NCBI RefSeq assembly: GCF_013167455.1
Contig: NZ_CP038328.1
Length of the DNA stretch: 64,000 nt
From: Escherichia coli O157:H7
GTDB lineage: Bacteria; Pseudomonadota; Gammaproteobacteria; Enterobacterales; Enterobacteriaceae
Reading direction: 5' to 3' (one strand)
How positions within the stretch are numbered: the stretch's first letter is position 1; each line of letters starts with the position of its first letter. Below, piece by piece: positions 19,729 through 19,786 of this stretch. Made by a program: the position numbers and the translations under genes. Below the pieces are notes generated by a model. It worked only from the letters and a program-made list of their open reading frames with translations. It made no database searches and was not told the origin of the DNA.

Positions 19729-19743
19729 TGCATTAAGTGGAAA

Positions 19744-19776
19744 GGGGGAGTGAGAAATCACTCCCCCTGGTTTTTA
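19744..19776 (+). terminator. Intrinsic terminator after tyrS, within the tyrS-pdxY intercistronic region
   Basis: 10-bp stem GGGGGAGTGA / TCACTCCCCC, GAAA loop, followed by TGGTTTTTA; pdxY ATG follows 11 nt later. Confidence 0.7.
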
Positions 19777-19786
19777 TACAGGGAAC

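Follow-up and report, generated by a model that had tools for sequence, protein, structure and literature searches.

Locus and gene assignments

In the Escherichia coli chromosome, pdxY follows tyrS on the same strand after only 58 nt, and these 58 nt hold an inverted repeat with the look of a strong transcription terminator, which raises the question of whether tyrS transcripts end at this site and, if they do, how pdxY is expressed. We analyzed the junction in a 64,000-nt stretch of DNA from E. coli O157:H7, hereafter called the window. The evidence given below, namely the statistical significance of the stem-loop, its conservation with covariation and an in vivo 3′ end, leads us to regard the element as a terminator; the full reading, in which it is an intrinsic (Rho-independent) tyrS terminator that is leaky, lies inside an operon and leaves pdxY to be expressed by read-through, has a probability of roughly 87% in our estimation.

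Gene identities were assigned with NCBIfam equivalog models and from the genes that RefSeq annotates on E. coli chromosomes carrying the same DNA. The order in this part of the window is pdxH-tyrS-pdxY-gstA-dtpA, as on the E. coli chromosome. The 2.4 kb around the tyrS-pdxY junction matched E. coli chromosomes at 100% identity and was found in 5424 of 5426 complete genomes. In K-12 MG1655, the counterparts lie on the minus strand, with pdxY at 1715026..1715889(-) and tyrS at 1715948..1717222(-), the latter corresponding to window positions 18454-19728. The genes and gene signals were as follows:

17669-18325, plus strand: pdxH (PNP/PMP oxidase), first gene of the operon (NCBIfam TIGR00558, 276 bits; RefSeq)
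18454-19728, plus strand: tyrS (tyrosine--tRNA ligase, 424 aa) (TIGR00234, 505.7 bits; K-12 mapping)
19726-19728, plus strand: tyrS stop codon TAA (sequence)
19780-19784, plus strand: Shine-Dalgarno-like AGGGA of pdxY, 2 nt before the ATG at 19787 and 5 nt before the ATG at 19790
19787-20650, plus strand: pdxY (pyridoxal kinase 2) (NF004398 PdxY, 484.8 bits; K-12 mapping)
20694-21299, minus strand: gstA (NCBIfam equivalog)
21405-22907, minus strand: dtpA (NCBIfam equivalog)

The annotated tyrS start is 18454, and the mechanically derived ORF opens at an in-frame upstream ATG at 18442. The 5′ end of pdxY reads ATGATG (19787-19792). In almost all other species the PdxY protein aligned from residue 2, with the second ATG alone present, and Escherichia whittamii carries ACG where the first ATG stands. 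Judging from its sequence, AGGGA is the probable Shine-Dalgarno sequence of pdxY, and a CAGG(G) motif occupies the same position in most species of the alignment. Because the second ATG is conserved and is separated from AGGGA by 5 nt rather than 2 nt, the conserved ATG at 19790 (286 aa), rather than the one annotated at 19787, is probably the functional start of pdxY.

A stable hairpin with a short U-run separates tyrS from pdxY

Dissection of the junction gave the following elements:

19729-19742, plus strand: 14-nt spacer from the tyrS stop to the hairpin (sequence)
19743-19753, plus strand: hairpin 5′ arm AGGGGGAGTGA (= AGGGGGAGUGA) (sequence, fold)
19754-19757, plus strand: hairpin loop, a GAAA tetraloop (sequence, fold)
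19758-19768, plus strand: hairpin 3′ arm TCACTCCCCCT (= UCACUCCCCCU) (sequence, fold)
19769-19778, plus strand: tail GGUUUUUAUA, with GG at 19769-19770 and TTTTT at 19771-19775 (sequence)

The five T are followed by ATAC, AGGGA and AC, and then by the ATGATG of pdxY. The stem comprises 11 bp, 7 of them G-C pairs, or 10 bp when the closing A-U pair is left out. The original prediction had placed a GC-rich 10-bp stem here, beginning 16 nt beyond the end of tyrS, and had counted 11 nt from 19776 to the pdxY ATG; the sequence agrees on all three, the 10-bp stem occupying 19744-19767. It had also described a stem plus U-tract, and both are present, with the qualification that the U-tract is short, with five U in the first 8 nt after the stem, and is offset from the stem by GG.

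Folding of the hairpin gave a free energy of -21.6 kcal/mol, with core pair probabilities of at least 0.95 in five sequence contexts ranging from 77 to 181 nt. The RNA of the whole gap (19729-19786, 58 nt) folded at -23.5 kcal/mol, whereas dinucleotide shuffles gave -12.9 ± 2.5 (z = -4.18) and none of 200 did as well, and a consensus scan ranked the junction hairpin as the top terminator-like site in 17000-22000. Across the whole window, 12 hairpin-plus-T sites were found against 0.45 per dinucleotide shuffle, and three sites, the junction hairpin among them, reached a free energy of -21 kcal/mol or lower against 0.0 in the shuffles. On the strength of the fold z score and the whole-window comparison with shuffles, we rejected a chance hairpin.

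Two other identities for the element were considered. A REP/BIME-like repeat was rejected, as the sequence is present once per E. coli genome. A bidirectional terminator is unlikely, given that the consensus scan made no minus-strand call at the junction, that the minus-strand tail reads UUCCACUU and that no gene converges on the site.

A tyrS 3′ end lies within the U-run in vivo

The Term-seq data for MG1655 published by Adams et al. 2021 (eLife 10:e62438) contain, in Supplementary file 1, a "primary" tyrS 3′ end at 1715904(-), which is curated in the LB OD 0.4 sheet only. Mapping of this K-12 coordinate placed the end on the second U of the U-run, at window position 19772 and 4 nt beyond the stem. 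The table prints 61 bases per site, of which base 51 is the 3′ end, a reading that we checked on the sgrS row, where it falls on the last U of U8; over the 61 nt shown, the K-12 sequence is identical to that of the window. The terminator that had been predicted between tyrS and pdxY from sequence is thus matched by an RNA 3′ end inside its U-run. With such a short distance from the stem, this end could have been produced by an exonuclease that trimmed the RNA as far as the stable hairpin, in which case it would not mark the exact point of release. Neither tyrS nor pdxY appears in the table of Rho-termination regions from the same study (Adams et al. 2021), which is weak negative evidence for Rho-independence.

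The terminator is conserved across Enterobacteriaceae

A scan for PdxY in one genome per species yielded 80 Enterobacteriaceae loci, with upstream DNA present in 79, and in all 79 of these tyrS lay immediately upstream of pdxY on the same strand. Every intergenic region of the 79 other species examined contained a hairpin with a T-rich tail, at free energies of -12 to -26 kcal/mol. The GAAA loop was found in 73 of 80 sequences, and the spacing from stop codon to hairpin was 5-16 nt in 79 of 80. At most orthologous sites the tail holds 6-7 T in 8 nt, uninterrupted and directly abutting the stem. Among 5425 E. coli genomes, 5420 carried the junction at an identity of 99% or more.

Covariation was assessed on an unguided MAFFT alignment of 72 distinct sequences with the 11-pair structure, and RNAalifold recovered the same helix from this alignment. 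Standard pairs were formed in 89.7% of cells, versus 40-68% when the 3′ partners were slid by 1-3 columns. Compensatory cells numbered 66, a count that none of 500 shuffles reached (19 ± 3), the main compensatory switch being GGGGGAGUGA/UCACUCCCCC versus GGGGCGUGGG/CCACGCCCC. Changes on both sides were seen for 7 of the 11 pairs, a count of 5.5 ± 0.9 in shuffles that 63 of 500 shuffles attained.

In four genomes of one clade (Cedecea neteri and "Enterobacter" sp. Ag1, Cy-643 and RIT693), the GAAA hairpin was replaced at the same position by the unrelated AAAAGCACGGC-UUAU-GCCGUGCUUUU, followed by more U (T8); as DNA this terminator reads AAAAGCACGGC-TTAT-GCCGTGCTTTTTTTT and is located ~20-45 nt beyond the stop codon of tyrS. 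An unrelated hairpin in the same place shows that the function has persisted while the sequence turned over, so that selection acts on the presence of a terminator at this point rather than on its particular sequence.

Two loci carried insertions. In Enterobacter sp. BIGb0383, a highly self-complementary insertion of ~145 nt (~2296-2440 of locus L056) lies between the tyrS stop and the conserved hairpin, and the folding energy of this intergenic region is -98.9 kcal/mol; from its sequence, the insertion looks like a miniature inverted-repeat element. In one of 5425 E. coli genomes (strain PRO_A-1028-6W-A_ESBL, NZ_CM136177.1), an IS200C copy (3077-3790 of locus L081), oriented as tyrS and pdxY, has entered at the site equivalent to window 19775/19776, right after the five T and before ATACAGGGAAC-ATG. 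This IS200C has its own hairpins at both ends, and pdxY in this strain is therefore probably further insulated from tyrS transcription.

Probable expression of pdxY by read-through

Considering that the terminator stands directly ahead of pdxY, the source of the pdxY message has to be explained. The original prediction had offered readthrough or a promoter inside tyrS. No sigma-70-like site turned up within tyrS or beyond it in a strict consensus scan, which a weak internal promoter could escape. As read from the sequence, the 11-nt gap between the T-run and the ATG is too small for a promoter with a usable leader, and a promoter inside tyrS would lie 5′ of the hairpin, so that its transcripts must also read through. 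The dependence of pdxY on one of the two routes appears to have been well predicted, and owing to the 11-nt gap both reduce to read-through.

Work by Yang and co-workers on K-12 is reported, in its abstract, to have found pdxY completely cotranscribed with tyrS, with ~92% of tyrS transcripts said to end at a putative Rho-factor-independent attenuator between the two genes and a read-through fraction reportedly of ~8%. We take this attenuator to be the junction hairpin analyzed here. Published papers name the unit the pdxH-tyrS-pdxY operon and, with reference to Yang et al. 1998 and Lam & Winkler 1992, describe tyrS termination as studied.

In the mechanism that we propose, RNA polymerase coming from the pdxH and tyrS promoters would transcribe the GAAA-capped hairpin and then the U-run, and most complexes would release their RNA at the hairpin to give abundant tyrS mRNA with a 3′ end at ~19772. 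A minority of complexes would read through and produce the sole pdxY message, and the terminator would in this way fix the ratio of the two transcripts, high for tyrS and low for pdxY, inside a single operon. Two features could plausibly account for the leak: the imperfect tail, with GG between the stem and a U-run of only five U, and the position of the hairpin 14 nt from the stop codon, where a closely trailing ribosome may sometimes hinder folding.

Two observations concern the ends of the pdxY message. At its 5′ side, an ACA overlaps the pdxY start (AACAUG, window 19785-19787), and Table 1 of Sauert et al. 2016 (PMC5001579) counts pdxY among the polysome-associated mRNAs that MazF processes, placing the cleaved ACA at a distance of 2 nt from the start codon; a MazF cut at that ACA would part pdxY from the tyrS hairpin and leave a nearly leaderless mRNA. 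At its 3′ side, the 43-nt spacer between the convergent pdxY and gstA genes contains a hairpin, GGCCCAC-AACGAACT-GTGGGCC at 20664-20685, with a U-run on neither strand, so the end of the read-through pdxY transcript is not obvious from the sequence.

Alternative readings of the junction

That the junction might act as a regulated attenuator, with read-through varying, for example, with how near the lead ribosome on tyrS is to the polymerase, with tyrosine or tRNA-Tyr charging, or with PLP status, we consider unlikely. If true, pdxY transcription would be conditionally coupled to tyrS translation or B6 status, and the word "attenuator", reportedly chosen by Yang and co-workers themselves, counts in its favor. 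So does the position of the hairpin 14 nt after the stop, within the 5-16 nt range seen in 79 of 80 sequences and inside the zone of less than ~27 nt from a stop codon in which Li et al. 2016 (PMC4824070) saw the lead ribosome partially repress a Rho-independent terminator; in the same study, termination efficiency ranged from 0.12 to 0.8 at 17-18 nt, depending on sequence. Yet the core pairs held their high probability in every context folded, and folding revealed no antiterminator, the best competing duplex of either arm with the flanks reaching only -10 kcal/mol against the -21.6 kcal/mol of the hairpin. At the junction, no Rfam family (riboswitch, T-box or leader) was matched at E ≤ 1, and no leader ORF is present, the sequence upstream of the hairpin being tyrS coding region. 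We accordingly rejected a regulated attenuator built on an alternative structure, for which there was neither a competitor structure nor an Rfam match. The possible attenuation point of the original prediction stands as a leaky intra-operon terminator, whereas signal-responsive attenuation finds no support in an antiterminator, an Rfam family or a leader ORF. The short spacing also appears dispensable, as Enterobacter sp. BIGb0383 tolerates its ~145-nt insertion, and a terminator close behind a stop codon is nothing unusual in bacteria generally (Li et al. 2016, PMC4824070). A narrower form of the idea, quite unlikely in our view, holds that the short stop-to-hairpin spacing has been selected so that, at the end of tyrS, termination efficiency tracks the distance at which the lead ribosome trails RNA polymerase; transcription of pdxY would in that case report on the coupling of transcription and translation along the tyrS message, an attenuation with neither leader nor dedicated structure that links B6 salvage to translation status.

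A complete terminator combined with a separate pdxY promoter 3′ of the U-run is very improbable. The hairpin is strong, and pdxY is non-essential, so very low independent expression could suffice. However, the -10 element of such a promoter would fall in CCCCCTGGTTTTTAT, which has no acceptable match to TATAAT, and a start within the 11-nt gap leaves no leader for AGGGA. The consensus scan, free of sigma-70-like sites in and after tyrS, tells against it as well, as do published papers, which treat the three genes as one operon, and the complete cotranscription reported for K-12. Hardly credible, finally, is that the hairpin serves as a 3′-end stabilizer or processing stop, with polymerase reading through and the hairpin blocking 3′ exonucleases after cleavage downstream. 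The short U-run fits this explanation, as does the Term-seq end 4 nt past the stem, compared with the 7-9 nt typical of release sites; but a loss of a few nucleotides from terminated transcripts is usual in such data, and the hairpin is accompanied by a T-rich tail in every species, in most of them with a longer uninterrupted T-run abutting the stem. A hairpin and T-rich tail conserved together are a signature of termination and not of mere exonuclease protection, and we retain the leaky intrinsic terminator of tyrS as the preferred reading.

Other structures in the window

Two further structures were observed in this part of the window. The Term-seq table that lists the tyrS end (Adams et al. 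2021) also reports an ORF-internal 3′ end in pdxH, at MG1655 1717931(-), which corresponds to window position 17745. This site (17726-17745, plus strand), ~76 nt after the pdxH start, comprises a G+C-rich hairpin, GGCGGGTTACGCCGCC, with no U-tract, and the 3′ end falls 4 nt after the hairpin. On the minus strand, a weak Rfam match to sroB at 21350-21434 (31.8 bits against a gathering score of 44; E = 0.21) overlaps a strong terminator at 21383-21357 between dtpA and gstA, and the match is probably driven by the terminator hairpin.

Relation to known systems and significance

The rpsU-dnaG-rpoD operon of E. coli contains an internal partial terminator, T1. Like the tyrS-pdxY hairpin, T1 stands between co-directional genes of one operon and, by intrinsic termination, lowers downstream expression relative to a highly expressed gene of the translation apparatus; it differs in operon and in sequence, and the comparison extends to the working principle only. 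Lambda tR2 in the constructs of Li et al. 2016 (NAR 44:2554, PMC4824070), where it was set close behind a stop codon, is similar in being a Rho-independent terminator within ~27 nt of a stop, a distance at which the lead ribosome can suppress folding and cause read-through, but that was a synthetic reporter system, and a ribosome effect at tyrS would be an extrapolation from it. The pyrBI attenuator (discussed in Li et al. 2016, PMC4824070) works with a leader peptide and programmed pausing, neither of which is present at tyrS-pdxY. The attenuator reported between tyrS and pdxY of K-12 by Yang, Tsui, Man & Winkler (1998, J Bacteriol 180:1814), in the operon treated by Lam & Winkler (1992, J Bacteriol 174:6033), is the same element as the window hairpin.

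The leaky tyrS-pdxY terminator is thus already known, having been described in 1998, and is of an ordinary, textbook type. What is new here is comparative only and a modest addition: the terminator has been kept across Enterobacteriaceae, with compensatory changes and one wholesale replacement. For the biology of the operon, the terminator explains how an abundant, essential aminoacyl-tRNA synthetase and a small amount of a non-essential pyridoxal kinase can be obtained from one transcription unit. Where tyrS is deleted or replaced, as in kill-switch and vaccine-plasmid work, removal of the terminator along with the gene would raise pdxY expression.
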